A DNA stretch of 32,000 nucleotides from Xylanibacter ruminicola 23 (GCF_000025925.1 NC_014033.1:3420001-3452000); one strand, 5' to 3'. Counted from the first letter of the stretch, positions 3,345 to 31,836 are shown. Notes: generated from the letters alone by a model not told the origin. Made by a program: numbers and translations.

Positions 3345-3366
3345 TAATTGCAAAATAAAGAAAGCA

Positions 3367-4056
3367 ATGAAGAATAAGGGTTTTATAAAGTTATATCGCA
3401 GTATGCTGTCGAAGCCTGAGATGACCGATCTTGTGAACGAACAGGGTGCGGTTGGCTTCGGCGTGTACATGATGATAGTGCTGCACCTGTCGCAGTGTGA
3501 TGATTACGAAGGGATGTTCACCAATGGACAGCTCAGTGCCTTTGCTGCCCAAGCCAAAACTACCCGTAAGAATGTGCGCCATATTATTGAGGATTTCGGA
3601 TTGTTTGAGATCAACGGAAACCGATTTAAAACCGCAACAAAATCGGAAGAAAATGCCGACGAAACCGAAACTAAATCGCCACACTCACATGCGCGTAATA
3701 ATAGGTACGCAGGCGAAGATGTAGAAATAGATATAGAAAAAGAAAAAAAAGAAAAAGGCACGAAGGTTCCCGATATGATCGGACCTTCGGCCTACGAGGT
3801 GATGACGCGCGAGGGCCTGCGACAGGGCGGCCATGGCGAACCTGTGCCTTGGTGGGCACCGCCGCAGCGCGATGTGTACATGGTGTGGAGCCTGGTGGCC
3901 GACAGGTGGGTGCCGCCAGCGCAGATAGATGCCGAGGCCGAACGCCAGCGCCACAAAGAGATGAAGCCCGCCGACTTTATGATGAAGACGGCCTGGGAAG
4001 TACTAACCGAAGATGAACAAACAAGAATTCAAGACAATGCAAAACGACAGCTTTAA
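3367..4056 (+). CDS. DUF4373-like (Lin1244/Lin1753 N-terminal-like) replication-associated protein
   Basis: 229 aa. The N-terminus GFIKLYRSMLSKPEMTDLVNEQGAVGFGVYMMIVLHL resembles the phage replisome-organizer N-terminal pattern. There is an acidic/lysine low-complexity linker (EDVEIDIEKEKKEKGTK). The ORF overlaps the next gene by 44 nt. Confidence 0.55.
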   Translation: MKNKGFIKLYRSMLSKPEMTDLVNEQGAVGFGVYMMIVLHLSQCDDYEGMFTNGQLSAFAAQAKTTRKNVRHIIEDFGLFEINGNRFKTATKSEENADETETKSPHSHARNNRYAGEDVEIDIEKEKKEKGTKVPDMIGPSAYEVMTREGLRQGGHGEPVPWWAPPQRDVYMVWSLVADRWVPPAQIDAEAERQRHKEMKPADFMMKTAWEVLTEDEQTRIQDNAKRQL

Positions 4057-5934: not shown

Positions 5935-5955
5935 TTTAATGTTTAATGTTTAATG
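5935..5955 (+). repeat. three perfect tandem TTTAATG heptamers ending in the start codon of the Zn-ribbon ORF
   Basis: tttaatg tttaatg tttaATG at 5935-5941, 5942-5948 and 5949-5955. The same heptamer array recurs at 23374-23408 in minus sense. Confidence 0.9.
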
Positions 5956-6135
5956 GAAATAACTTGTACGCGTTGCGGGCAAACACTGCCGCGCAGCAAA
6001 TTAGAACGCATGAAGACGGGCACCTACCGTCGGGTGTGCAACCATTGTAAGTGGCTGTACTACGTAAAGCCCAGTCGCGATCGGCGCATCCTTCGCGACC
6101 TGGAGGCCCGCCACCACCATCCCAACGAAAAGTAG
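5953..6135 (+). CDS. small zinc-ribbon protein, 60 aa, basic C-terminus
   Basis: MEITCTRCGQ...RRVCNHCKW gives CxxC-N20-CxxC. The tail is Arg/His-rich. It lies directly downstream of the primase-helicase, and its stop codon sits inside the first phased repeat. Confidence 0.55.
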   Translation: MEITCTRCGQTLPRSKLERMKTGTYRRVCNHCKWLYYVKPSRDRRILRDLEARHHHPNEK

Positions 6136-23580: not shown

Positions 23581-24873
23581 ATGAGTACAAGTAAGAATTA
23601 TCGTTTCGAGACTTTGCAACTGCATGTAGGCCAGGAACAGGCCGACCCCGCTACTGATGCACGTGCCGTGCCCATCTATCAGACCACAAGCTATGTGTTC
23701 CACAACTCAAAGCATGCTGCCGATCGTTTCGGACTTCGCGATGCTGGTAATATCTACGGTCGACTGACCAACTCTACACAAGGTGTGTTCGAGGACCGTG
23801 TGGCAGCACTCGAAGGTGGAGTAGCAGGTCTTGCAGTTGCCAGTGGTGCAGCCGCTATTACTTACGCTCTGCAGAACATTGTGCAGGCAGGTGACCATAT
23901 CGTAGCTGCTGATAACCTGTATGGTGGTTCTTACAACCTCATTACCCATACACTGGCTACCCAGGGCATTACCAATACCATCGTGAATGTAAACGATCTG
24001 GCTGCGCTCGAGGCTGCCATCAAGCCCAACACAAAAGTAGTATATGCCGAGACCTTCGGTAACCCTAACAGCGATGTGCTCGACCTTGAGGGTGTGGCTG
24101 CTGTTGCTCACAAGTATGGCATCCCATTCATCGTTGATAACACCTTCGGTACCCCATACCTGATCCGTCCATTGGAGCATGGTGCCGACATCGTAGTACA
24201 CTCGGCCACTAAGTTCCTGGGTGGACACGGAACCTCACTGGGTGGTGTGATTGTAGATGGTGGTAAGTTCGACTGGAAGGCTAATCCCGAAAAATTCCCC
24301 ACACTGGCTAAGCCCGATCCATCGTACCATGGTATCGTATTTGCCGATGCAGTAGGTGCTGCCGCTTACGTGACTCGTATCCGTGCCGTGATTCTGCGCG
24401 ATACCGGTGCTACACTGTCGCCATTCAATGCCTTTATCCTGCTGCAGGGTGTTGAGACACTGAGTCTGCGTGTAGAGCGCCACGTGGAGAATGCACTGAA
24501 GGTTGTTGACTTCCTGGCCAACCATCCAAAGGTGGCTAAGGTTAATCACCCAGCATTGGCAAGTCATCACGACCATGCTTTGTACAATAAGTATTTCCCA
24601 CAGGGTGGTGCCTCAATCTTCACCTTCGAGATTAAGGGCGGGCAGGAAGAGGCCTGGAAGTTTATCGATGCCCTGCAGATTTTCTCACTGCTGGCTAACG
24701 TGGCCGATGTGAAGAGTCTGGTTATCCACCCATATACCACCACTCACTCACAGCTGAGTCCTGAGGAGCTGGCTGAGCAGCACATCACGCCATCAACCAT
24801 CCGCTTGAGTATCGGTACTGAGCACATCGACGACATTATTGCCGACTTGTCACAGGCTTTTGACCAAATTTAA
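23581..24873 (+). CDS. metY: O-acetylhomoserine aminocarboxypropyltransferase / sulfhydrylase (PLP-dependent)
   Basis: 430 aa. [32 protein letters not shown], the PLP-lysine context [11 protein letters not shown], and C-terminal [16 protein letters not shown]. Confidence 0.92.
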
Positions 24874-24877
24874 CGGG

Positions 24878-24903
24878 AACGGGGAGTAAAATCCCCGTTT
24901 TTC
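24878..24903 (+). terminator. intrinsic terminator after metY
   Basis: AACGGGGA (24878-24885) pairs with TCCCCGTT (24892-24899), followed by a T run. Confidence 0.7.
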
Positions 24904-24907
24904 AACA

Positions 24908-24929
24908 ATATACCAAACGTTTGGTATAT
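24908..24929. promoter_or_regulatory. perfect 22-bp palindrome ATATACCAAACGTTTGGTATAT upstream of the cysK promoter
   Basis: All 11 base pairs of the dyad were checked by hand. It lies 43 nt upstream of the -7 box at 24973. Confidence 0.6.
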
Positions 24930-24972
24930 AGAATGCCACACAAGAGGGATTGTGAGACTGCAAAAAACGTCG

Positions 24973-24980
24973 TACCTTTG
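24973..24980 (+). promoter_or_regulatory. -7 promoter box (TACCTTTG) for cysK
   Basis: Exact TAnnTTTG match 69 nt upstream of the ATG at 25050. AGGGATTGTGAG at 24945-24956 lies 16 nt upstream, as at hemN. Confidence 0.55.
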
Positions 24981-25049
24981 CAGTGTGATAAAAATCATAT
25001 TGAAGAGAGAGATTTATTTGTTATTAATTTTATAAAAAAGGTAAGGATT

Positions 25050-25997
25050 ATGAGTAAAATCGCAAAACAGCTGACAGAGCTCGTCGGCAACACTCCACTT
25101 CTTGAGCTCAACAAGTTTTCACAGGCAAAGGGTCTGGAGACTCCTGTTATTGCCAAGGTAGAATTCTTTAATCCTGGTGGTAGCGTAAAAGATCGTATCG
25201 CACTGGCGATGATTGAAGACGCAGAGGCCAAAGGCATCTTGAAGCCAGGTGCAACCATTATCGAACCAACCTCTGGAAACACGGGCGTAGGACTGGCACT
25301 GGTATCAGCCGTCAAAGGCTACCATTTGATCCTTACCATGCCTGAAACCATGAGTGTAGAGCGCCGAAACCTTGTGAAAGCCTATGGTGCCGAGGTACGA
25401 CTCACTTCTGGTAAAGACGGCATGCCAGGCGCCATCCGCGCTGCAGAGGAACTGCGCGACTCTATCCCTGGTGCTGTGATTCTGCAGCAGTTTGAGAACG
25501 CTGCTAACCCTGCTAAGCACTATGCTACTACAGGTCCTGAGATCTGGCGTGACACCGATGGACAGGTCGACATCTTTATCGGCGGTGTAGGTACTGGTGG
25601 TACTATCAGCGGTACAGGTAAGTATCTGAAGGAGCAGAATCCAAACGTGAAAATTATCGCTGTAGAGCCCAAGTCGAGCCCTGTACTGAACGGCGGTCAG
25701 AGCGGTCCTCACAAGATTCAGGGTATCGGTGCAGGTTTCATTCCCAAGACCTACGATGCAACTGTTATCGACGAGGTGTTTGATGTAGAGAACGACGCTG
25801 CTATCCGTACAGGTCGTGAGATTGCTCAGCAGGAAGGTCTGCTGGTAGGTATCTCGGCAGGTGCAGCCCTCTATGCTGCTACCGAGGTGGCTAAGCGTCC
25901 TGAGAATAAGGGTAAGAAGATAGTAGTGCTGCTGCCTGATACTGGCGAGCGCTATCTCTCGACAGTGCTTTATGCATTCGAAGATTATCCACTTTAA
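25050..25997 (+). CDS. cysK: cysteine synthase A (O-acetylserine sulfhydrylase)
   Basis: [20 protein letters not shown]..., [14 protein letters not shown] (PLP lysine), [21 protein letters not shown]. The 43 codons upstream in the ORF track cross the promoter and were discarded. Confidence 0.93.
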
Positions 25998-26010: not shown

Positions 26011-26047
26011 AAAAAGTGGGTGACCGTTTGGTCACCCATTTTTTTTA
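26011..26047. terminator. intrinsic terminator after cysK (A-tract/T-tract flanked)
   Basis: TGGGTGACC (26017-26025) pairs with GGTCACCCA (26030-26038), followed by T8 and preceded by A5. Confidence 0.75.
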
Positions 26048-26153: not shown

Positions 26154-27572
26154 CTAGTATTTTGTTCTTGCGGTCTTATGGCCTTGTTCGATAACGATTC
26201 CTCGGTAACTATTAGGAGCCAGGGTTCCGCTGAGTGTGTAGGAACGGGCAGAGCCGGAGGGAATGGTGGTGGCAGGAGCTGGGATGGCGGAAGCCTCGGT
26301 GTCTTTGATGGCATCGTATTCCGTCATTGTTTCGGCCATGCGGGCATCGAGATCTGACAGACGATAGAGTCCATCGCTATTAGCCGTCAGTCCTTCGATG
26401 GTGACGGGGAGAATCATAGGTGGCTCTTCGACAGAAAGCAATGTGCGGTTCTGTAACTGACTGACGGACTGATATACCAGATTGATGGCAACGTACTCAT
26501 CTGTACCGTTGCTCCACTTCTCGAACACGAGTTTAGAACCGATGGGGGTATGTAGTTCCAGAGCCTGTTCGGTTTCTGGATATACGAGACGCAGGGCTGC
26601 ACCGATACTGGCCAGATTGCTGTCGTGACCACAGAGGAATGTGAACTTACGTCGGTCGTGGTGCAGTTCTTCACGGATACGACTCACTAATGGGTAAGCC
26701 AGGTTTACGGCAGCACTATGAGTTGTGAAGAGCAAAGCGTCGTATACCTCCTTGATGCCGCAGATGGCTCGCCATTGCTCCTGAGTCAACTCATGGCCGA
26801 AGGCCGACAAGCTCTCGCTTTCGTAGCATTGCAGCACCAGAGCGTCGGCTACGCTATTGGCCAGCTTAAAGCCGCCTGTCATCTTTGGTTCGTCGCCCTT
26901 CTCTAATGTAAACTGCGTGTCATCGTACCAGAAGTGCGTTGTGTCGTTCTGCGCTGCTGGTGAGTGCGCCATATCAATGATTTCCTCTACCAGCGTTAGG
27001 GTGGGCTGTACAGACTGCATCCAAGCCTGTGGACCGTTGTGCATGGCGTTTATCTCGGCGAGAACCTGCTGGCGGTAGGTATCGTTCATCTTTGTGAACT
27101 GTGGCGTAAACAAGGGATCCATCTTGTCCTCCTCGTACTTGTGCTTAATCTCCACGTTGGCGAAGGGCAGGAATCCGGCTGAGAAATACTTAGCTGTGGC
27201 AAATGTACGCTGGCGAGAGTTGGCGTAGAACAGCACATCGTCGCCATCGGGACGGTAGTTGTCGGGCAGCAGTCCTTCGCCTACCAACCATTTGCGGAAA
27301 AACTGTCCCATCTCTGTTTCAAGTACGCCGCCACGCAATGATAACTGACTGCCTGGCGATGTCCACTTAAACCATTCATAAGGCGTTACTCGCATATAGG
27401 TGGCACCGCCCGATGCCAGTGGTGAGCGGATGTTGTGGCGACTCATCACTACGACCTCCTTCAGCTGATACTTAGCTTTGAAGTCGGCCGATCGCTTTGT
27501 CTGTGCCTGTGTACTGATTGTTGCTGTCATGGCAGCAAGCATTAATAAAAGTAGTTTTTTCATTCTGTCCAT
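26154..27572 (-). CDS. periplasmic histidine-type acid phosphatase, Agp (glucose-1-phosphatase)-like
   Basis: 472 aa with a signal peptide. The catalytic RHxxR motif is VVMSRHNIRSPL and the HD motif is LCGHDSNLASI. Other stretches (FYANSRQRTFATAKYF, TPIGSKLVFEKW, YQSVSQLQN) are collinear with my recollection of E. coli Agp. Confidence 0.85.
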   Translation of the reverse strand: MDRMKKLLLLMLAAMTATISTQAQTKRSADFKAKYQLKEVVVMSRHNIRSPLASGGATYMRVTPYEWFKWTSPGSQLSLRGGVLETEMGQFFRKWLVGEGLLPDNYRPDGDDVLFYANSRQRTFATAKYFSAGFLPFANVEIKHKYEEDKMDPLFTPQFTKMNDTYRQQVLAEINAMHNGPQAWMQSVQPTLTLVEEIIDMAHSPAAQNDTTHFWYDDTQFTLEKGDEPKMTGGFKLANSVADALVLQCYESESLSAFGHELTQEQWRAICGIKEVYDALLFTTHSAAVNLAYPLVSRIREELHHDRRKFTFLCGHDSNLASIGAALRLVYPETEQALELHTPIGSKLVFEKWSNGTDEYVAINLVYQSVSQLQNRTLLSVEEPPMILPVTIEGLTANSDGLYRLSDLDARMAETMTEYDAIKDTEASAIPAPATTIPSGSARSYTLSGTLAPNSYRGIVIEQGHKTARTKY

Positions 27573-27584
27573 ATGTTATTTTTT

Positions 27585-29390
27585 TTACGCGTTGTTATTT
27601 GTTTGTTTATAGGTGGTTGGCGTCATGCCGTACTTGGTGCGGAAGTTGCGGGTAAAGGTGTCGGCATTGGTAAATCCGCTGGCCTGACTTACCTGCTCAA
27701 CGTTCAGGTCGGGCTGGCTGTTCATCAGACTTACAGCATAATCGAGGCGCAGTTCGCGAACGTAGGCTGGCAGCGAAACACTATCGCTACCCTGTGCAAA
27801 GGCGGCACCAATGCGTTCCTTCGACAGGCCTGTACGATCGATGAGCGACTGTCGGTCAAAGTCGGGCTGCAAGAACAGTTTCTCGTTTTCAATCAAATCG
27901 CGCAGGCAGAGGAATAACTGCTCGTCGGTAAGTGTCGTGAAATCAGAGATGCTAAGTCCTGCTCCAATTGTACTTGGTTCAGCAGTTTCAGCTTCGACCT
28001 TTGGTGAATTTGTTGATTCGGCCGAACGGTTAGCGGCTTTCAGTTCTTTGTATTTCTCCTTATACTCTACGGCCTCGGTAATCTGTCGGGCCAGGATGCG
28101 GTTGTGTCGCTGGGTGATGCGCCACTGCAGGAAGGCATAGAGACCGAAAGCCAGGATAAGTAAAGCTGCTGTGGTGACGGCAATGCTGATGGCTGTTACG
28201 AATCGGTTCTGGGCGCGCTGTTCTGCTATCTGGCGCTCCTTGCCCTGCGTGTCGTAGATGGTAGCCAGTTCGGCACTTTCGCTACGCTTCTGGCGTACAA
28301 GGGCCGTATCGTAGACTTCGGCTATCTGCATGGCCACATGGAGGGCCGAGTCCTTACGTCCGGCAAAATAGTTGGAACGGAACTTAGGCAGCAGATTCTG
28401 ACCGATGGTTTCTAAATCGTATTCATAACCCCAATCCTTAATAAAACGGTCGAGCTCGGTATAGTTGTCGGCAGCTTCGGCATAGCGACGGGCTTCTACC
28501 AGGTATCCGCAGCCGTTGATGCGTCCCTCGAGTGTTTGTCCAAAGTCGGTTTTCATATATTGGGCATAATTGCGGGCGGCTTCGGCTGTTTTTCCGTTCA
28601 TCTGGTACACTTGTGCACGATGCAGCCAAACTAAGGCACGCAGTGTTTTTAATTCTTTTTCAATCGGCTTGGGCTCTTTCTCATAGATAGTTACAAGCGA
28701 GTCCATGCGATCTACCCATACGCCGGCCTCATTCAAGTGGTGATTGATGTGACTAACGGCGATATTCTCTAAGGTTTGAATGCTGGCTGCTATCGGTCGG
28801 TTTGTAGAGTCGTTAACTGTGCGAAGTACCCACAGATAGGCATCGTCATAACTCTTCTTGGCTTCGTCGAAGCGTTCCAACATTATCTGGGTGTCGCCTA
28901 GGCTTAAGTAAAGCGTCTGTAATTCGACAGGACAGTATGGATTGTCCACATCCTTCAGCTTGTCGATAAGCAGGAGGGCAGTGCGCATGGCATTATCGTA
29001 GTCGCGATCGGTGGTTAGCATGATAACCAGGTTAGTGCCTGCATGTATGTACTCCCAGAAGTCCTCGGCAGGAGGATTCTCGATAGAAACAACACGACGG
29101 AAGCACTCGATGCACTTATCCATCTGTCCCATCTGGAAATAAGCTACGCCACGATAGCCTTCGGCACGTATCGGCGAGAGTTCGCCAACTTCGGCCAAAC
29201 TGTCAGTAACGGCCAGGAAATGCTCAAAGTCGCCAGAAAATCTAGCAGCCAGAGCAATACTGTCGCCACGTGTGGAAATGCGCTTTGCGGGGATGTCGCC
29301 TCGTTTTTCACCGCCCTTACCGCCACAGGCCGTGAGCACGGTAAGGATGATAGCTATACTTATTAAATATATGCACCTACAAATTTTCAT
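27585..29390 (-). CDS. membrane-anchored one-component regulator: lipoprotein signal, TPR-like sensor, one TM helix, coiled coil, AraC-type HTH
   Basis: 601 aa. N-terminus MKICRCIYLISIAIILTVLTACGG, then a repetitive helical TPR-like region. TM helix is FVTAISIAVTTAALLILAFGLYAFLQW. The C-terminus is LRLDYAVSLMNSQPDLNVEQVSQASGFTNADTFTRNFRTKYGMTPTTYK. It ends 12 nt before the phosphatase gene. Confidence 0.85.
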   Translation of the reverse strand: MKICRCIYLISIAIILTVLTACGGKGGEKRGDIPAKRISTRGDSIALAARFSGDFEHFLAVTDSLAEVGELSPIRAEGYRGVAYFQMGQMDKCIECFRRVVSIENPPAEDFWEYIHAGTNLVIMLTTDRDYDNAMRTALLLIDKLKDVDNPYCPVELQTLYLSLGDTQIMLERFDEAKKSYDDAYLWVLRTVNDSTNRPIAASIQTLENIAVSHINHHLNEAGVWVDRMDSLVTIYEKEPKPIEKELKTLRALVWLHRAQVYQMNGKTAEAARNYAQYMKTDFGQTLEGRINGCGYLVEARRYAEAADNYTELDRFIKDWGYEYDLETIGQNLLPKFRSNYFAGRKDSALHVAMQIAEVYDTALVRQKRSESAELATIYDTQGKERQIAEQRAQNRFVTAISIAVTTAALLILAFGLYAFLQWRITQRHNRILARQITEAVEYKEKYKELKAANRSAESTNSPKVEAETAEPSTIGAGLSISDFTTLTDEQLFLCLRDLIENEKLFLQPDFDRQSLIDRTGLSKERIGAAFAQGSDSVSLPAYVRELRLDYAVSLMNSQPDLNVEQVSQASGFTNADTFTRNFRTKYGMTPTTYKQTNNNA

Positions 29391-29409
29391 GATAAATAGT
29401 TTGTAGGTG

Positions 29410-29417
29410 CAAAGGTA
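29410..29417 (-). promoter_or_regulatory. -7 promoter box (TACCTTTG) for the TPR-AraC regulator
   Basis: The reverse complement of caaaggta matches TAnnTTTG, 19 nt upstream of the ATG at 29390. Confidence 0.55.
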
Positions 29418-29573
29418 CGGGTTATTTTCTAAAAACCCAAATAAAAAATCAAGTTTTTATCTTTTCCCCCTTCAATATTCCATTCATAAAGATTTAGAAT
29501 CTGTAACCACCGGCAGAGAGAACCGAATACATGCCGAAACTCTTTTTGCGTAGCCAGTTGAATTTAGTTAGCA

Positions 29574-29672
29574 TTAATTATCATTGTGAGTCATGTCGAG
29601 CACCAACATTCTTACCACCAGGATAAATAATATCACGGCGACGACTAACAGAACCATCAGCGCTATTTCCAT
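29574..29672 (-). CDS. 32-aa hydrophobic microprotein A (paralog of B)
   Basis: Not in the ORF track. Hand translation: MEIALMVLLVVAVILFILVVRMLVLDMTHNDN. It shares the C-terminal VR-x-x-VLDM-(T/S)-HN with ORF B, and a roughly 20-nt conserved block cattgtgRStcatgtcgag. Confidence 0.5.
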   Translation of the reverse strand: MEIALMVLLVVAVILFILVVRMLVLDMTHNDN

Positions 29673-29728
29673 GTTTTTAGAAGTTTATCACACCAATATT
29701 GAAATGCATCTTTTTAAGATATATACTA

Positions 29729-29830
29729 TTACAGTTTACCATTGTGGCTCATGTCGAGTACCCACAATCTTACAATCATTGCCAACACTATTAAGGCGAA
29801 TGCCATCAGGATAATTAGATTTGTTTCCAT
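29729..29830 (-). CDS. 33-aa hydrophobic microprotein B (paralog of A)
   Basis: Not in the ORF track. Hand translation: METNLIILMAFALIVLAMIVRLWVLDMSHNGKL. The ATG is 33 nt downstream of a TATCTTTG -7 box. Confidence 0.55.
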   Translation of the reverse strand: METNLIILMAFALIVLAMIVRLWVLDMSHNGKL

Positions 29831-29863
29831 ACTTTTATTACTTTTGTTTTTAAATTTCTGGTG

Positions 29864-29871
29864 CAAAGATA
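29864..29871 (-). promoter_or_regulatory. -7 promoter box (TATCTTTG) for microprotein ORFs B and A
   Basis: The reverse complement of caaagata matches TAnnTTTG. Repeat copy L1 lies 28 nt further upstream, over the -33 region. Confidence 0.5.
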
Positions 29872-29899
29872 TAACAAAAAGACAGTATCTGCAATAGCA

Positions 29900-29938
29900 C
29901 AGACAAATGGTCGGGTGGTTTCAGACAAATAGTCGGGT
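29900..29938 (-). repeat. two copies (L1, L2) of the 17-bp motif YCCGAC-N-ATTTGTCTG, minus orientation, 22-bp phasing
   Basis: The plus strand reads CAGACAAATGGTCGGGT (29900-29916) and CAGACAAATAGTCGGGT (29922-29938). Confidence 0.85.
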
Positions 29939-30063
29939 ATTTGTTCGCGATAACTACACCTATTATAGATATAAAATTGTTTAAAACCACAAAACAAAAT
30001 GTAGTTTTATCGTGTGTTTTGCTATCATTATCTTGAAATTAAGTACCAAAAGTTGTGTAATTT

Positions 30064-30143
30064 GTCCGACGACGTGTCGTTTTGTCCGACAGATTGTCTG
30101 AAATGTCCGACGATTTGTCTGAAACCACCCGACTATTTGTCTA
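30064..30143 (+). repeat. four copies (R1-R4) of the same 17-bp motif, plus orientation, 20/21/22-bp phasing
   Basis: GTCCGACGACGTGTCGT (30064, degenerate), GTCCGACAGATTGTCTG (30084), GTCCGACGATTTGTCTG (30105), ACCCGACTATTTGTCTA (30127). R4 lies 28 nt upstream of the -7 box at 30172. Confidence 0.85.
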
Positions 30144-30171
30144 AACCCTTGTGGGAATGGATTTTTTGCCT

Positions 30172-30179
30172 TACCTTTG
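30172..30179 (+). promoter_or_regulatory. -7 promoter box (TACCTTTG) driving an orphan short transcript
   Basis: Exact TAnnTTTG match. No ORF longer than 12 codons lies between it and the terminator at 30299-30349. Confidence 0.5.
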
Positions 30180-30185
30180 CAACCA

Positions 30186-30349
30186 GAAAATTTAATCGCT
30201 CTTTCTTTTTTTTAAGTAATAGATATAACCTAATGATCAATATCCTTTTGACAATGAAGTGCAGTGCGTAATGGAACGAAGCGTTAACTGCCAAACGTGC
30301 CCCAGGCCAACTATCTCGCTAACGGATAGAAGGCCTGGGGCCTTTTTTT
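30186..30349 (+). ncRNA. candidate small RNA (about 165 nt) or 12-aa micro-ORF transcript ending in a strong terminator
   Basis: It is bounded by a promoter box and an intrinsic terminator: GCCCCAGGCC (30299-30308) pairs with GGCCTGGGGC (30332-30341), followed by T7, with an inner CTATC/GATAG hairpin. The only ORF is ATG 30233..30271, MINILLTMKCSA. Confidence 0.4.
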
Positions 30350-30401
30350 GTATAAAACAAATTATTTTTGATTTTTTGTTTGGCGTATAAGAATAATGTT
30401 G

Positions 30402-30409
30402 TATATTTG
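30402..30409 (+). promoter_or_regulatory. -7 promoter box (TATATTTG) for the riboswitch leader
   Basis: TAnnTTTG match about 80 nt upstream of the aptamer core. Confidence 0.5.
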
Positions 30410-30479
30410 CAACGTGATTCAAGAATGAGTCTATGTGAAAGTTGAGGCTACGCCTCGACATAACGTGAACGTTGAGGCA

Positions 30480-30655
30480 TAGCCTCGACCTTCGCCCGTA
30501 AAGGTTCGCTTAGCCGCGATTAATTGGGAATGTGAGTGAGAATCTCCGACTGTCCCGCAGCAGTGAACTCCATTATGGCTCCTAAGCATCAATGCCATTG
30601 CCCGTTTGGGTGAGAAGGCGCTTGGGAGTGGAGGAAAGTCTGAAGACCAGCCTTT
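30480..30655 (+). promoter_or_regulatory. cobalamin (B12) riboswitch
   Basis: The conserved core TTAATTGGGAATGTGAGTGAGAATCTCCGACTGTCCCGCAGCAGTGAA matches the consensus GGGAA..GGTG.GAATCC...CTG.CCCGCA.C.GT.AA. The B12 box GGAAAGTCTGAAGACCAGCC is at about 30634-30653. Exact ends are uncertain. Confidence 0.85.
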
Positions 30656-30716
30656 TTCGGTATTTGCTAAATGCTCTCGATGTAAGGGCGTGAGGCGCAA
30701 CTTAATTTTTGTGGGT

Positions 30717-31112
30717 ATGAAACATGAATCAATCGTCGTGGTATACGACAGTTGTCAGGCTATTGCAGAAGAAATAGCCGACAAGCTTGGCGCTGAAACT
30801 ATCAGCGTACAGAGTATTAACAACAGGCAGATAGAAAACTGCCAGAGTTTTGTTCTTGCATTAGAGTTTATGGCTGATGGAAGTATGACTCCCCATTGGC
30901 AGTGGGCTTGTCAAACGTTGCGTGGTGCTAGCCTAAGTGGAAAGAACTTTGCCGTGTTAGTGGCATTAGGTAACAAACTGAATCATGATGCAGATAAAAT
31001 TTGCCATGAACTGCGTGAACGCCATGCGCACATTGTTGGCGAACAGCTATATGCTGAAACGCCCCAATGCAATCTCGAAAATTGGATATGTTCTGTTTCA
31101 CCTAATTTATAA
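30717..31112 (+). CDS. flavodoxin-fold protein, divergent paralog of the neighbouring fldA with FMN-binding loops deleted or replaced
   Basis: 131 aa from the ATG at 30717 (the upstream part of the track ORF runs through the riboswitch). It aligns by eye to the 31342..31836 product: IVVVYDS----CQAIAEEIADKLGAE vs IVIYGSSTGTCEAIAEKIASKLGCE; TLRGASLSGKNFAV vs TLQGADLSGKTIAI; ENWICSVSPNL vs DAWLAAITPSL. Confidence 0.7.
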   Translation: MKHESIVVVYDSCQAIAEEIADKLGAETISVQSINNRQIENCQSFVLALEFMADGSMTPHWQWACQTLRGASLSGKNFAVLVALGNKLNHDADKICHELRERHAHIVGEQLYAETPQCNLENWICSVSPNL

Positions 31113-31341: not shown

Positions 31342-31836
31342 TTAAAGACTTGGAGTAATAGCTGCCAACCAGGCATCGATACGTGTATCGGTCTGGTCGT
31401 CCTCATTGATGTCGTCGAGAGGCAGGCCAATAAACTTTCCGTCGATAACTGCTTCAGAATCGTCGAAAGTGTAACCATCGGTTTCAACGCTACCAATAAA
31501 GTTGGCACCGCTGTCTTTGATGCCGTTATAGAGCTCACCCATACCACCTACAAATGTATCACTATAGGTAGAACAGTCGCCACAACCAAAGATGGCGATA
31601 GTTTTTCCGCTCAGGTCGGCACCCTGTAAGGTCTTCAAACCGTCGTACCAATCGTCCTGCAGTTCGCCAGCTCCCCAGGTAGAGGTACCTAAGATCAGAT
31701 TCTGGTTTGCGGCAACGGTTTCGGCCGAAAGATCCTGTACATTCAAGGCTTCGCAACCCAGCTTCGAGGCTATCTTCTCTGCGATGGCCTCGCATGTTCC
31801 TGTAGAGGAACCATAAATTACAATAGTTGAATTCAT
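31342..31836 (-). CDS. fldA: flavodoxin (long-chain, FldA type)
   Basis: 164 aa. FMN phosphate loop IYGSSTGTCE, Trp loop GTSTWGAGE, FGCGDCSTYSDTF, and long-chain insertion. Confidence 0.9.
   Translation of the reverse strand: MNSTIVIYGSSTGTCEAIAEKIASKLGCEALNVQDLSAETVAANQNLILGTSTWGAGELQDDWYDGLKTLQGADLSGKTIAIFGCGDCSTYSDTFVGGMGELYNGIKDSGANFIGSVETDGYTFDDSEAVIDGKFIGLPLDDINEDDQTDTRIDAWLAAITPSL

Follow-up and report, generated by a model that had tools for sequence, protein, structure and literature searches.

The locus at positions 26154-30349 of the window, the 32,000-nucleotide, Xylanibacter (Prevotella) ruminicola-like stretch of DNA analysed here, raises the question of whether its closely spaced elements belong to a single signalling system. 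A preliminary description, made from the sequence alone, had proposed that they do and had listed a membrane-bound AraC-type regulator, two microproteins, an array of phased repeats, a small RNA and a periplasmic phosphatase. All of these sequence features were found where that description had placed them. The first four, with the RNA being a structured one, apparently constitute a conserved and undescribed switch in rumen Prevotella-type bacteria. The 601-residue protein is probably a transmembrane one-component activator that has the microproteins and the RNA as its outputs, and a probability of roughly 0.62 can be given to this reading, in which we infer both DNA binding and activation rather than repression.

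Domain structure of the regulator

The regulator (601 residues; 27585-29390, minus strand) starts with a lipobox signal, LTAC, in which Cys22 is the lipobox cysteine, and this cysteine is kept across homologues with 54-97% identity. The rest of the chain comprises TPR repeats (Pfam TPR_1/2/8), one transmembrane helix and an AraC-type C-terminal part, in which residues 518-596 match the AraC/XylS family (HTH_18, 48.2 bits with a cut-off of 33.6; HTH_AraC, 27.0 bits with a cut-off of 26.6). A search of NCBIfam returned only generic AraC-domain matches. The AF2 model of the protein is of moderate confidence, with a pLDDT of 67.8 and a pTM of 0.43. The TPR solenoid spans about residues 41-342 and is periplasmic in the predicted topology. 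The sole hydrophobic transmembrane helix, approximately residues 397-420, lies inside a long helix (346-446). A disordered linker of about 40 residues joins this juxtamembrane helix to a two-HTH AraC-type domain (residues ~489-599), which is modelled as seven helices with a pLDDT of about 80-87. The TPR fold of the model matches LGN/Pins, and NprR/Rap are found lower in the list.

The gene appears to have a promoter of its own. A -7 box of the TAnnTTTG type, TACCTTTG, can be read at 29410-29417 on the minus strand; one of the related loci, L002, has such a box at the equivalent position, and the upstream region is also alignable in L009 and L003-L005. Here and below, Bacteroidota promoter elements were identified by their consensus only.

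Relationship to known regulators

Proteins of the ToxR/ToxS, TcpP/TcpH and CadC type unite a signal sensor and a DNA-binding part in a single membrane-spanning chain, and ToxR and TcpP each have a small membrane partner whose gene is adjacent. The domain layout of the window regulator, with its predicted topology, would place it among such one-component transmembrane regulators, of which ToxR, CadC and TfoS are examples. The DNA-binding domains of ToxR, TcpP and CadC are, however, of the winged-helix OmpR type, whereas that of the window regulator is of the AraC type. The partners of ToxR and TcpP are periplasmic-domain proteins of 150-170 residues, whereas the microproteins considered here are peptides of 32-70 residues with a putative partner role.

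TfoS of Vibrio cholerae is, according to the available part of its description, a transmembrane AraC regulator that switches on the promoter of the small RNA TfoR by binding to it directly, and its periplasmic domain senses chitin oligosaccharides (PMC3903286). The window regulator is likewise a transmembrane AraC protein with a small-RNA promoter as its predicted target. In contrast, the same part of that article does not describe the TfoS sensor as a TPR solenoid, nor does it describe a lipoprotein signal, a phased multi-unit operator array or a microprotein output (PMC3903286). The likeness thus suggests a functional analogy and not membership.

For the membrane-anchored AraC domains of the Bacteroides HTCS proteins, the predicted targets are direct repeats with a spacing of about 21 bp, which mostly lie beside the regulator's own locus (PMC3878776). 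Like the HTCS proteins, the window regulator is a Bacteroidota inner-membrane sensor with a C-terminal AraC-type domain, and the 21-22-bp direct-repeat geometry of the array matches this prediction, which supports the preliminary interpretation of the array as a target of the regulator. HTCS proteins nevertheless possess histidine-kinase and receiver domains and another periplasmic sensor, and their targets are polysaccharide-utilisation loci, whereas the sensor of the window regulator is of the TPR type and its predicted outputs are the microproteins and the RNA. It is not assigned to the HTCS family because a Pfam search of the protein found no histidine-kinase (HK), receiver (REC), HisKA or HATPase domains; their place is taken by the short disordered linker.

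The repeat array and its promoters

The repeat unit is written as CCGAC-N3-TTGTC for the copies counted in the window, and as CCGAC-N3-TTTGTC for the units on the microprotein side and for the arrays compared across loci, where the phase is 21-22 bp. The half-array on the microprotein side consists of two exact units, 22 nt apart (29902-29914 and 29924-29936, minus strand). The half on the RNA side (30066-30141, plus strand) consists of three exact units and one with a single mismatch, spaced by 20-22 nt, so that the '2+4' count given earlier is correct provided the degenerate unit is included. In each unit of the array there is a pair of TGTC half-sites, separated by 12 nt inside the unit and by 9 nt from the unit that follows. 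The rest of the window holds just two one-mismatch copies of the repeat, with 1.5 expected by chance, and eight matches were reached in none of 100 shuffles of the window.

Both halves are associated with a -7 box of the TAnnTTTG type. The box of the microprotein promoter, TATCTTTG, is located at 29864-29871 on the minus strand, 43 nt from the proximal CCGAC, and that of the RNA promoter, TACCTTTG, at 30172-30179 on the plus strand, again 43 nt from the proximal CCGAC, which begins at 30129. The spacing between these two elements is exactly 43 nt in 66 of the 69 distinct arrays.

Predicted products of the two promoters

The microprotein promoter is followed by the genes of two predicted single-TM peptides, microprotein 1 (type A, 33 residues, METNLIILMAFALIVLAMIVRLWVLDMSHNGKL; 29729-29830) and microprotein 2 (type B, 32 residues, MEIALMVLLVVAVILFILVVRMLVLDMTHNDN; 29574-29672), both on the minus strand. 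The microproteins are strongly hydrophobic, with a maximum Kyte-Doolittle value of about 3-3.7, and the pattern shared by them across loci is 'ME-T-T-L-M-I-L'. Differences between orthologues of microprotein 2 are distributed over the three codon positions as 579/275/855, as expected for a coding hydrophobic segment. Homologues of microprotein 1 are present in public gene calls (P0121-P0140); in the genomic contexts fetched for three such proteins, it immediately follows a regulator homologue and an array at 9 of 10 places. Altogether there are three paralogous subfamilies, one of which, a 67-residue form, has a cytoplasmic helix that is charged and conserved. Being located downstream of an array-linked promoter, the microproteins look like outputs.

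Beyond them lies a remnant of a gene for a small outer-membrane β-barrel (29494-29574, minus strand; ..FNWLRKKSFGMY.. in the ORF list). A blastn search with 29508-29565 gave matches within the outer-membrane protein (OMP) genes of L003-L006, and the full-length counterpart in L004 matches OMP_b-brl. The OMP gene also comes after the microproteins in relatives.

The predicted product of the plus-strand promoter is a structured RNA of about 165 nt (30186-30349, plus strand). An unstructured 5' part, which contains the conserved core ACCUUUUGACAA, precedes hairpin P1 (GCAG..CUGC); the terminal hairpin, at 30299-30341, is followed by a U-run (a T-run in the DNA). Homologues were found at 26 distinct loci; 95% of cells are paired, compensatory changes occur at 5 pairs, and the folding energy (MFE) is -42 kcal/mol (z -2.3). 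The RNA contains no conserved ORF and, in the region 29350-30480, there is no Rfam match at E<=1. The sole Rfam match in the window is a cobalamin riboswitch at 30485-30669. The term 'orphan' sRNA used in the preliminary description does not fit the family, whose members form the 5' leader of the microprotein operon in many relatives: the RNA is a sense-strand leader of the microproteins in 16 loci and is divergent elsewhere. Its pairing to the translation-initiation regions of the microprotein, regulator and phosphatase genes is not significant (RNAduplex z -1.6 to +1.8).

Conservation of the locus

The searches for relatives set out separately from the regulator, from the microproteins and from the repeat DNA. 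An array and promoter accompany the regulator in 12 of the 13 loci fetched by regulator homology, and 9 of the 10 loci fetched by a microprotein contain both regulator and array. A blind DNA-pattern search of metagenomes, the loci of which were ascertained with the motif itself, placed a regulator homologue in the same locus for 48 of 50 genuine arrays. The co-conservation of regulator, phased repeats, microproteins and small RNA, proposed earlier as a comparative test, thus holds from three independent starting points. The two arrays that lack a regulator in the fetched DNA, L096 (3.6 kb of upstream sequence) and L033 (1 kb), indicate either action of the regulator in trans at these loci or a linkage that is not absolute. 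In relatives the repeat motif almost exclusively adjoins the regulator gene, and it is retained beside regulators as diverged as 38-56% identity.

Among the 81 arrays with sufficient downstream DNA, microproteins come next in 56 (16 of them with an RNA leader in between) and the RNA alone in 11. In the common layout, the RNA is transcribed away from a first array, on the other side of which are the regulator promoter and gene, a second array, the microproteins and the OMP gene, in that order; the two array copies therefore flank the entire 1.8-kb regulator gene. In the window the two array halves are adjacent, with the RNA on one side and the microproteins, the OMP remnant, the regulator promoter and the regulator on the other. 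This order is a rearranged form of the common layout, with a linkage that persists despite the rearrangement. Where the regulator is most diverged (38-42% identity; the same holds for L037/L060, at about 61%), the array precedes genes for secreted proteins and no microprotein is adjacent, which argues against an obligatory partner role of the microproteins.

Alternative explanations

The gene of the Agp-like phosphatase (26154-27572, minus strand) starts 12 nt past the regulator stop codon. Its product has a signal peptide and is a predicted periplasmic protein. The match to His_Phos_2 (E 6e-19, 69.1 bits with a cut-off of 23.6), the motif SRHNIRSP, an RH-x-x-R-x-P variant of the RHGxRxP type, and the downstream CGHDSNL (HD motif) identify it as a branch 2 histidine acid phosphatase, similar to Agp and AppA. 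It scores 309 bits against the NCBIfam Agp model PRK10173, under the equivalog cut-off of 425, and is thus called Agp-like but not an Agp equivalog. There is no terminator between the regulator and phosphatase genes, and the nearest terminator-like site beyond the phosphatase is at 26038-26017 (minus strand); the two genes are probably co-transcribed in the window species.

The phosphatase could accordingly be regarded as a fifth part of the module, being its physiological output or the source of its signal (sugar phosphates or phytate), while the microproteins, as modulators of the MgrB/SafA/ToxS kind, would contact the transmembrane helix of the regulator and exert feedback. The arrangement of the genes in the window would suit this explanation, as would the recurrence of the phosphatase near the regulator in three different arrangements (that of the window and L001, that of L007 and that of L053). 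Besides the window, however, L001, L007 and L053 are the only related loci with a nearby phosphatase. It is missing from the great majority and so is peripheral to the conserved module, and this component of the preliminary proposal was not borne out. The gene for MgrB is induced by the same system that MgrB modulates, and small single-TM proteins under an array-linked promoter beside a membrane regulator fit the logic of PhoP-induced MgrB. The microproteins resemble MgrB, which acts on PhoQ, and SafA, which connects EvgS and PhoQ, in size and in their single membrane pass, and the location of their genes behind an array-linked promoter fits induction by the system. The target of MgrB and SafA is a kinase, whereas that of the microproteins would be a DNA-binding membrane protein. 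A Pfam search with the microproteins gave no match, in sequence they are unlike MgrB and SafA, and a BLASTP comparison of microprotein C with the transmembrane region of the regulator gave E = 0.27. Furthermore, the arrays of the most diverged regulators drive secreted proteins with no microprotein beside them, and in L096 an array and a microprotein occur with no regulator in the fetched DNA. Taken as a whole, the five-part explanation is unlikely.

It is very unlikely that the repeats are the site of a different factor or have a structural role, as the termini of a phase-variable promoter segment that can invert or as remnants of a mobile element, with the regulator nearby by synteny only, even though the co-occurrence may also be compatible with another factor acting on the repeats. 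Inverted repeats flanking promoters are a hallmark of Bacteroidales invertible promoters, and the two array halves do form an 81-nt inverted duplication, comprising operator and promoter, around a 158-nt spacer. The arms are, however, just 74% complementary, a similarity accounted for by the shared operator and promoter, and the copies that flank a whole regulator gene in relatives do not suit this explanation. There is no recombinase-sized ORF at 24-32 kb of the window. A 43-nt register relative to the -7 box, together with phasing of 21-22 bp, is what belongs to an activator site, and the linkage is kept after rearrangement and beside regulators with identity as low as 38%.

A type I toxin-antitoxin-like locus, with the microproteins as membrane-damaging toxins, the RNA as antitoxin and the regulator as a mere neighbor, is the least probable explanation and a highly improbable one: the peptides are indeed short, very hydrophobic and adjacent to a small structured RNA, but this RNA is a sense leader or divergent and not antisense to the microprotein genes, even its strongest complementarity to the initiation regions (z -1.6) is not significant, in L098 a clean deletion has removed the RNA but left the microproteins, and the three paralogous subfamilies with their strict linkage to regulator and array are unlike mobile toxin-antitoxin loci.

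Model of the switch

If the 601-residue protein is a transmembrane one-component activator, its lipid-anchored TPR solenoid would be periplasmic, a single helix would pass through the inner membrane and the AraC-type domain would be cytoplasmic. The trigger would be a signal from the envelope, and the TPR fold of the sensor makes a peptide or a protein its probable ligand. Several protomers would line up along one face of the DNA, one per 21-22-bp CCGAC-N3-TTTGTC unit. The proximal unit, 43 nt upstream of the -7 box, would adjoin the -33 region, a fixed position that suits recruitment of RNA polymerase. Two divergent copies of the operator and promoter in the window would give two outputs. On one side these would be the two single-TM microproteins, where transcription may continue into the genes of the regulator and the phosphatase, and on the other the terminator-ended RNA. 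The nature of the signal and the functions of the microproteins and the RNA are also what we infer.

A more far-reaching and rather unlikely version of this model is a self-contained envelope circuit. The regulator would sense a periplasmic peptide or protein cue, the RNA would act in trans to remodel envelope or OMP synthesis, and the paralogous microproteins would insert beside the transmembrane helix of the regulator and tune or reset it in the manner of MgrB or ToxS; such MgrB-like feedback is speculative. If true, it would be the first circuit of its kind to be described in Bacteroidota. Its sensor module would be one that is reused with PP2C and kinase outputs. Sensors with the same combination of TPR lipoprotein and transmembrane helix are 30-39% identical to the regulator over its residues ~10-465, which cover the signal peptide, TPR solenoid and TM helix, but end in a SpoIIE/PP2C phosphatase or in HisKA and HATPase domains instead of an AraC domain.

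The conserved association of regulator and operator array

The five-part signalling module proposed in the preliminary description (regulator, microproteins, repeat array, orphan small RNA (sRNA) and Agp-like phosphatase) was examined in related loci (L numbers) collected through regulator homology, microprotein homology or DNA pattern. Starting from the regulator, the repeat motif is present in 12 of 13 genome loci, and across about 10 kb of flank it is essentially confined to regulator-adjacent DNA. Starting from the microproteins, homologues were found in public gene calls with a profile of concatenated microprotein pairs, none of them with a domain or an informative name. The contexts of three such proteins place the gene directly 3' of a TPR/HTH_18 regulator and an array in 9 of 10 places; the remaining context ends at a contig end. 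Starting from the DNA, a blind scan of metagenome contigs requiring two phased units gave 119 loci, of which about 69 were set aside after inspection as unrelated 21-22-nt tandem repeats in organisms of other GC content. The full operator-promoter unit is found in 50, and 48 of these have a regulator homologue in the same locus. Co-conservation of regulator and phased repeats, the check proposed in the preliminary description, is supported from all three starting points. No regulator is present in the loci of two arrays: L033, whose upstream sequence extends for only 1 kb, and L096, where the array drives a microprotein 3' of a glycoside hydrolase gene. The same motif is kept adjoining regulators of just 38-56% identity.

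The unrelated contigs (L072/L126, L073, L083, L034/L049, L077/L103 and others) carry 3-7 perfect tandem 21-22-nt repeats containing CCGACnnnTTGTC, for example CCGACAATTTGTCATAGTTCAC in four copies. Such repeats could be iterons, or operators of other elements arranged in arrays, and the type of site behind them, AraC-like or Rep-like, may be widespread.

Operator arrays and promoter geometry

The array consists of CCGAC-N3-TTGTC units spaced 20-22 nt. Two exact copies lie on the minus strand (29902-29936), and three exact copies plus one with a single mismatch on the plus strand (30066-30141), which agrees with the 2+4 count originally given. Elsewhere in the 32-kb window there are two one-mismatch copies only. 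The shuffled window has 1.5 matches on average, and eight were reached in none of 100 shuffles. Both half-arrays are contained in an 81-nt inverted duplication, together with one TAnnTTTG box per side. The duplication was also considered as an invertible promoter, but this reading was rejected on several grounds, among them that the arms are only 74% complementary.

Promoters were assigned by the TAnnTTTG consensus, the -7 box of the Bacteroidota type. Consensus boxes belong to the RNA promoter (30172-30179, plus) and the microprotein promoter (29864-29871, minus), and a third precedes the regulator (29410-29417, minus). A sigma-70 promoter scan gave chance-level matches, the sigma-70 model not being one for Bacteroidota promoters. 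The T of TAnnTTTG lies exactly 43 nt from the first C of the proximal CCGAC in 66 of 69 distinct arrays, and also for both array copies in the window. The consensus of the array-promoter can be written as tCCGAC..(degenerate unit)..TCCGACnATTTGTCTGAAAcCatCCGACCATTTGTCtgt-CCCTTGTGGG-..TTTTT..TAccTTTGC. Two TGTC half-sites are present per 21-22-bp unit, at a distance of 12 nt from each other and of 9 nt from the following unit. This spacing would suit a two-HTH AraC domain on neighbouring major grooves, consecutive protomers then lying along one face of the DNA. The AraC domains of the membrane-bound hybrid two-component systems (HTCSs) of Bacteroides were likewise predicted by Ravcheev et al. 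to occupy direct repeats with a mean spacing of 21 bp (PMC3878776), similar to the 21-22-bp units found here.

Several related loci (L002 at 5950-5985, L008, L019, L035, L082 and others) have a hairpin, GTACCC-TTGT-GGGTAC, and a T-run between the proximal unit and the -7 box. Its stem varies compensatorily between loci (GTGCTC/GAGTAC; GCGCGC/GCGCGC in L082). The structure resembles a terminator of the regulator gene sitting inside the next promoter. The hairpin is degenerate where there is no upstream gene, that is, on the RNA side and in the relocated window copy (30145-30168 and 29875-29900).

The regulator and its sensor part

The 601-residue regulator (27585-29390, minus strand) carries a lipoprotein-type signal (LTAC, Cys22), TPR matches and a single hydrophobic helix, and ends in an AraC-type domain whose HTH_18 match scores 48.2 bits against a Pfam cut-off of 33.6. 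The lipobox, the TPR and HTH_18 matches and the predicted helix agree with the layout originally proposed, an exported TPR-like sensor followed by one transmembrane (TM) helix and a cytoplasmic AraC domain. A homologue in Xylanibacter ruminicola D31d is 97% identical, and identities to rumen Prevotellaceae isolates and metagenome-assembled genomes are 70-80%. The lipobox Cys is kept among homologues at 54-97% identity. In public annotations the homologues are named merely 'helix-turn-helix domain-containing' or 'AraC-like'.

An AlphaFold model (mean pLDDT 67.8, from a 25-sequence alignment) predicts an all-alpha TPR solenoid for residues 41-342, a single unbroken helix that includes the TM segment for residues 346-446, then a disordered linker, and an AraC domain of seven helices for residues 489-599. 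The top matches in a fold search with the solenoid are peptide-binding TPR domains (LGN/Pins), and the RRNPP sensors NprR and Rap come lower. The search returned generic TPR matches alone, and the clue to the ligand stops at a 'peptide/protein-binding type'; the modelled fold is a weak hint that the ligand may be a peptide or a protein.

An exhaustive search among 50%-identity representatives found 166 relatives at E <= 1e-30 and 889 at E <= 1e-10. Many relatives of about 690 residues align over residues ~10-465 of the regulator only, and in those checked a SpoIIE/PP2C or HisKA+HATPase output replaces the AraC domain. Examples from the homology searches, at 30-39% identity, are P0163 and P0165 (SpoIIE) and P0178 and P0229 (HisKA/HATPase), P0229 having a Cache domain as well. 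Being fused to PP2C, kinase and AraC outputs, the TPR-lipoprotein and TM part behaves, to judge from its domain partners, as a portable, modular extracytoplasmic sensor.

The microproteins

Microprotein 1 (type A, 33 aa, 29729-29830, minus) and microprotein 2 (type B, 32 aa, 29574-29672, minus) are hydrophobic peptides that share the C-terminal end VLDM(S/T)HN. Of the 81 arrays with sufficient downstream sequence, 56 have a single-TM peptide, starting ME-T-T-L-M-I-L or similar, within about 450 nt. Type A peptides have 33-48 residues and a C-terminal ...LD(E/M)xH..., and those of type B have 32, with ...RMLVLDMTHND. In type C (67-71 aa) the TM segment is followed by a strongly conserved charged helix, HKxDELKEKNDVIVREVRRNQxLIDRAVQNGV. 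Differences between orthologues at codon positions 1, 2 and 3 number 579, 275 and 855 for type B and 1814, 435 and 2409 for type C; being most frequent at positions 3 and 1 and least at 2, they have the pattern of a translated hydrophobic segment. Pfam and NCBIfam searches with the microproteins, the neighbouring 203-aa and 140-aa proteins and the small outer-membrane proteins gave only weak OMP_b-brl matches, to the last of these.

Their position after the array-promoter makes the microproteins probable outputs of the system. By analogy with MgrB and ToxS, it is attractive to suppose that they also feed back on the TM helix of the regulator. However, the arrays of regulators at 38-42% identity, and at about 61% (L037/L060), drive secreted proteins and have no adjacent microprotein; L096 combines an array and a microprotein with no regulator; and type C has no significant similarity to the TM region of the regulator. 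A derivation of microprotein C from the TM/juxtamembrane segment, as a decoy, was rejected, as BLASTP gave a non-significant E of 0.27.

Another family of small, lipobox-like peptides, ...ESLGLMAFIIICSMMVIGLSSC... (31-75 aa), occurs in L007 (5506-5628), L090, L085, L039, L132 and L133. In several loci these peptides come after an array or microprotein C, and in L007 the gene is 5' of a cation-diffusion-facilitator gene. In L002 (6023-6829), microprotein A is joined in frame at an A-run (...HNGKKAFLV...) to the next outer-membrane (OM) beta-barrel ORF, which could be an assembly error, a real fusion or a frameshift site; P0129 is a related fusion.

The structured RNA

The predicted plus-strand transcript of about 165 nt would end at a terminal hairpin (30299-30341) and the T-run behind it. 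It folds with -42 kcal/mol (z = -2.3). The RNA was taken at first for an orphan, but homologues lie 3' of array-promoters at 26 different loci. Common to them are an unstructured 5' part, in which the core ACCUUUU(U)GACAA (ACCUUUUGACAA) is invariant, a hairpin P1 (GCAG...CUGC) and the terminal hairpin (CCCAGRCC...GGYCUGGG). In an alignment of 17 sequences 95% of cells pair, with compensatory changes at five pairs, compared with only 26-52% in slid controls. Rfam has no match to the RNA at E <= 1.

In the window lineage a U-run follows the terminal hairpin, which predicts a stand-alone sRNA. In 16 loci the RNA is followed by CUUCGGUAAAAA and then by the microprotein genes, and thus takes the form of a 5' leader. 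L008 and L059 have array-promoter-RNA units in tandem. In L098, a metagenome contig (~8591-8650; compared with L100 and L027), a clean deletion has removed the leader RNA (about 165 nt) from its place between promoter and microprotein genes, and therefore the operon layout does not need the RNA in cis. Two ORFs inside the RNA, of 12 (MINILLTMKCSA) and 39 residues, were rejected as genes: the start codon or the protein is not conserved, and similarity tracks the RNA stems. No pairing above shuffles was found between the 5' part and the translation-initiation regions of the regulator, microprotein, OM protein and phosphatase mRNAs.

Gene order and the phosphatase

In the usual order (L002-L006, L009 and many metagenome loci), the RNA is transcribed away from an array, on whose other side the regulator's own promoter (Preg) leads into the regulator gene, a further array, microproteins A and B, and a small OM beta-barrel gene. 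In the window and in L001 the array-microprotein unit is placed upstream of the regulator promoter. A C-terminal fragment (29494-29574, minus) is what remains in the window of the beta-barrel gene, and L001, from the same species group, keeps about 180 nt more of it (~3350-3880). The remnant marks a recent rearrangement or deletion. Since the association outlived a change of gene order, a functional link is favoured over synteny alone. The stretch of the window from microprotein 2 to the regulator showed no terminator, so that transcription from the array promoter could read through.

The histidine acid phosphatase (His_Phos_2, with a signal peptide; 26154-27572, minus) starts 12 nt past the regulator stop. 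It scores 309 bits with the NCBIfam Agp model, which falls short of that model's equivalog cut-off (425). The short gap, and the position of the next terminator-like site at 26038-26017, make co-transcription with the regulator probable in the window. Among related loci, a phosphatase is near the regulator in three only: L001, placed as in the window; L007, where it is divergent and frameshifted; and L053, with the order regulator, array, microprotein C, a 946-aa lipoprotein and phosphatase. Judged by this distribution, the pairing is a species-level arrangement outside the conserved module. The features of the preliminary description are all present in the sequence where it placed them, and its observation is confirmed; its interpretation is partly supported, the core module being real and the phosphatase peripheral.

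Just past the phosphatase, on the opposite strand, are O-acetylhomoserine sulfhydrylase-like and cysteine synthase-like genes (23581-25997, plus), and the hairpin at 26017-26038 may be a bidirectional terminator.

Proposed mechanism and related systems

The regulator would be a transmembrane one-component activator that oligomerises on the phased units adjoining the -33 region and, when bound at the arrays, switches on the RNA and the microproteins. Vibrio cholerae TfoS, on the account consulted, is built from a periplasmic domain, a single TM helix and an AraC-like domain; it acts directly on the promoter of the sRNA TfoR, which it binds and activates (PMC3903286). On that account TfoS would be the closest characterised analogue in way of working, although the regulator is not counted as a member of its family. 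The AraC domains of HTCSs are the nearest analogues within the phylum, but the regulator lies outside this family, since kinase and receiver domains are absent.

Taken singly, each part is of a kind already known: the protein is a transmembrane transcriptional regulator, the array an AraC direct-repeat operator, and the rest are small membrane proteins and an sRNA. What appears to be undescribed is their combination, together with the strict geometry of the operator, the family of microproteins and an RNA that alternates between a leader and a stand-alone form. Full-text literature searches found no description of a TPR-TM-AraC regulator, these peptides or this RNA, and no relevant work on Prevotella microproteins or sRNAs, in agreement with the preliminary description, in which no system of this composition was known to have been described.

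HTCSs, SusR-like proteins and ECF sigma/anti-sigma pairs make up most of the envelope sensors known so far in Bacteroidota. To our knowledge, transcription control is almost unexplored in the Prevotellaceae, which are dominant rumen and gut bacteria. The module offers a compact, directly testable regulon with a defined operator of strict geometry, a sensor domain wired also to PP2C and kinase outputs, a new conserved microprotein family, and a new structured RNA that is predicted to be both a stand-alone sRNA and a 5' leader. It is a clean system for asking how membrane-tethered regulators gain access to DNA in Bacteroidota, what small membrane proteins do there, and how a leader RNA becomes an sRNA. 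Feedback of the microproteins on the regulator, if it occurs, would carry MgrB/ToxS-type logic into a new phylum and over to a sensor that binds DNA.

A cobalamin riboswitch (30485-30669, plus; 78 bits, E 8e-18) is found directly 5' of a flavodoxin-like ORF (30606-31112, plus; MKHESIVVVYDS...), on which a second, canonical flavodoxin gene (31342-31836, minus) converges. The pairing of a B12 riboswitch with a flavodoxin paralogue is unusual.
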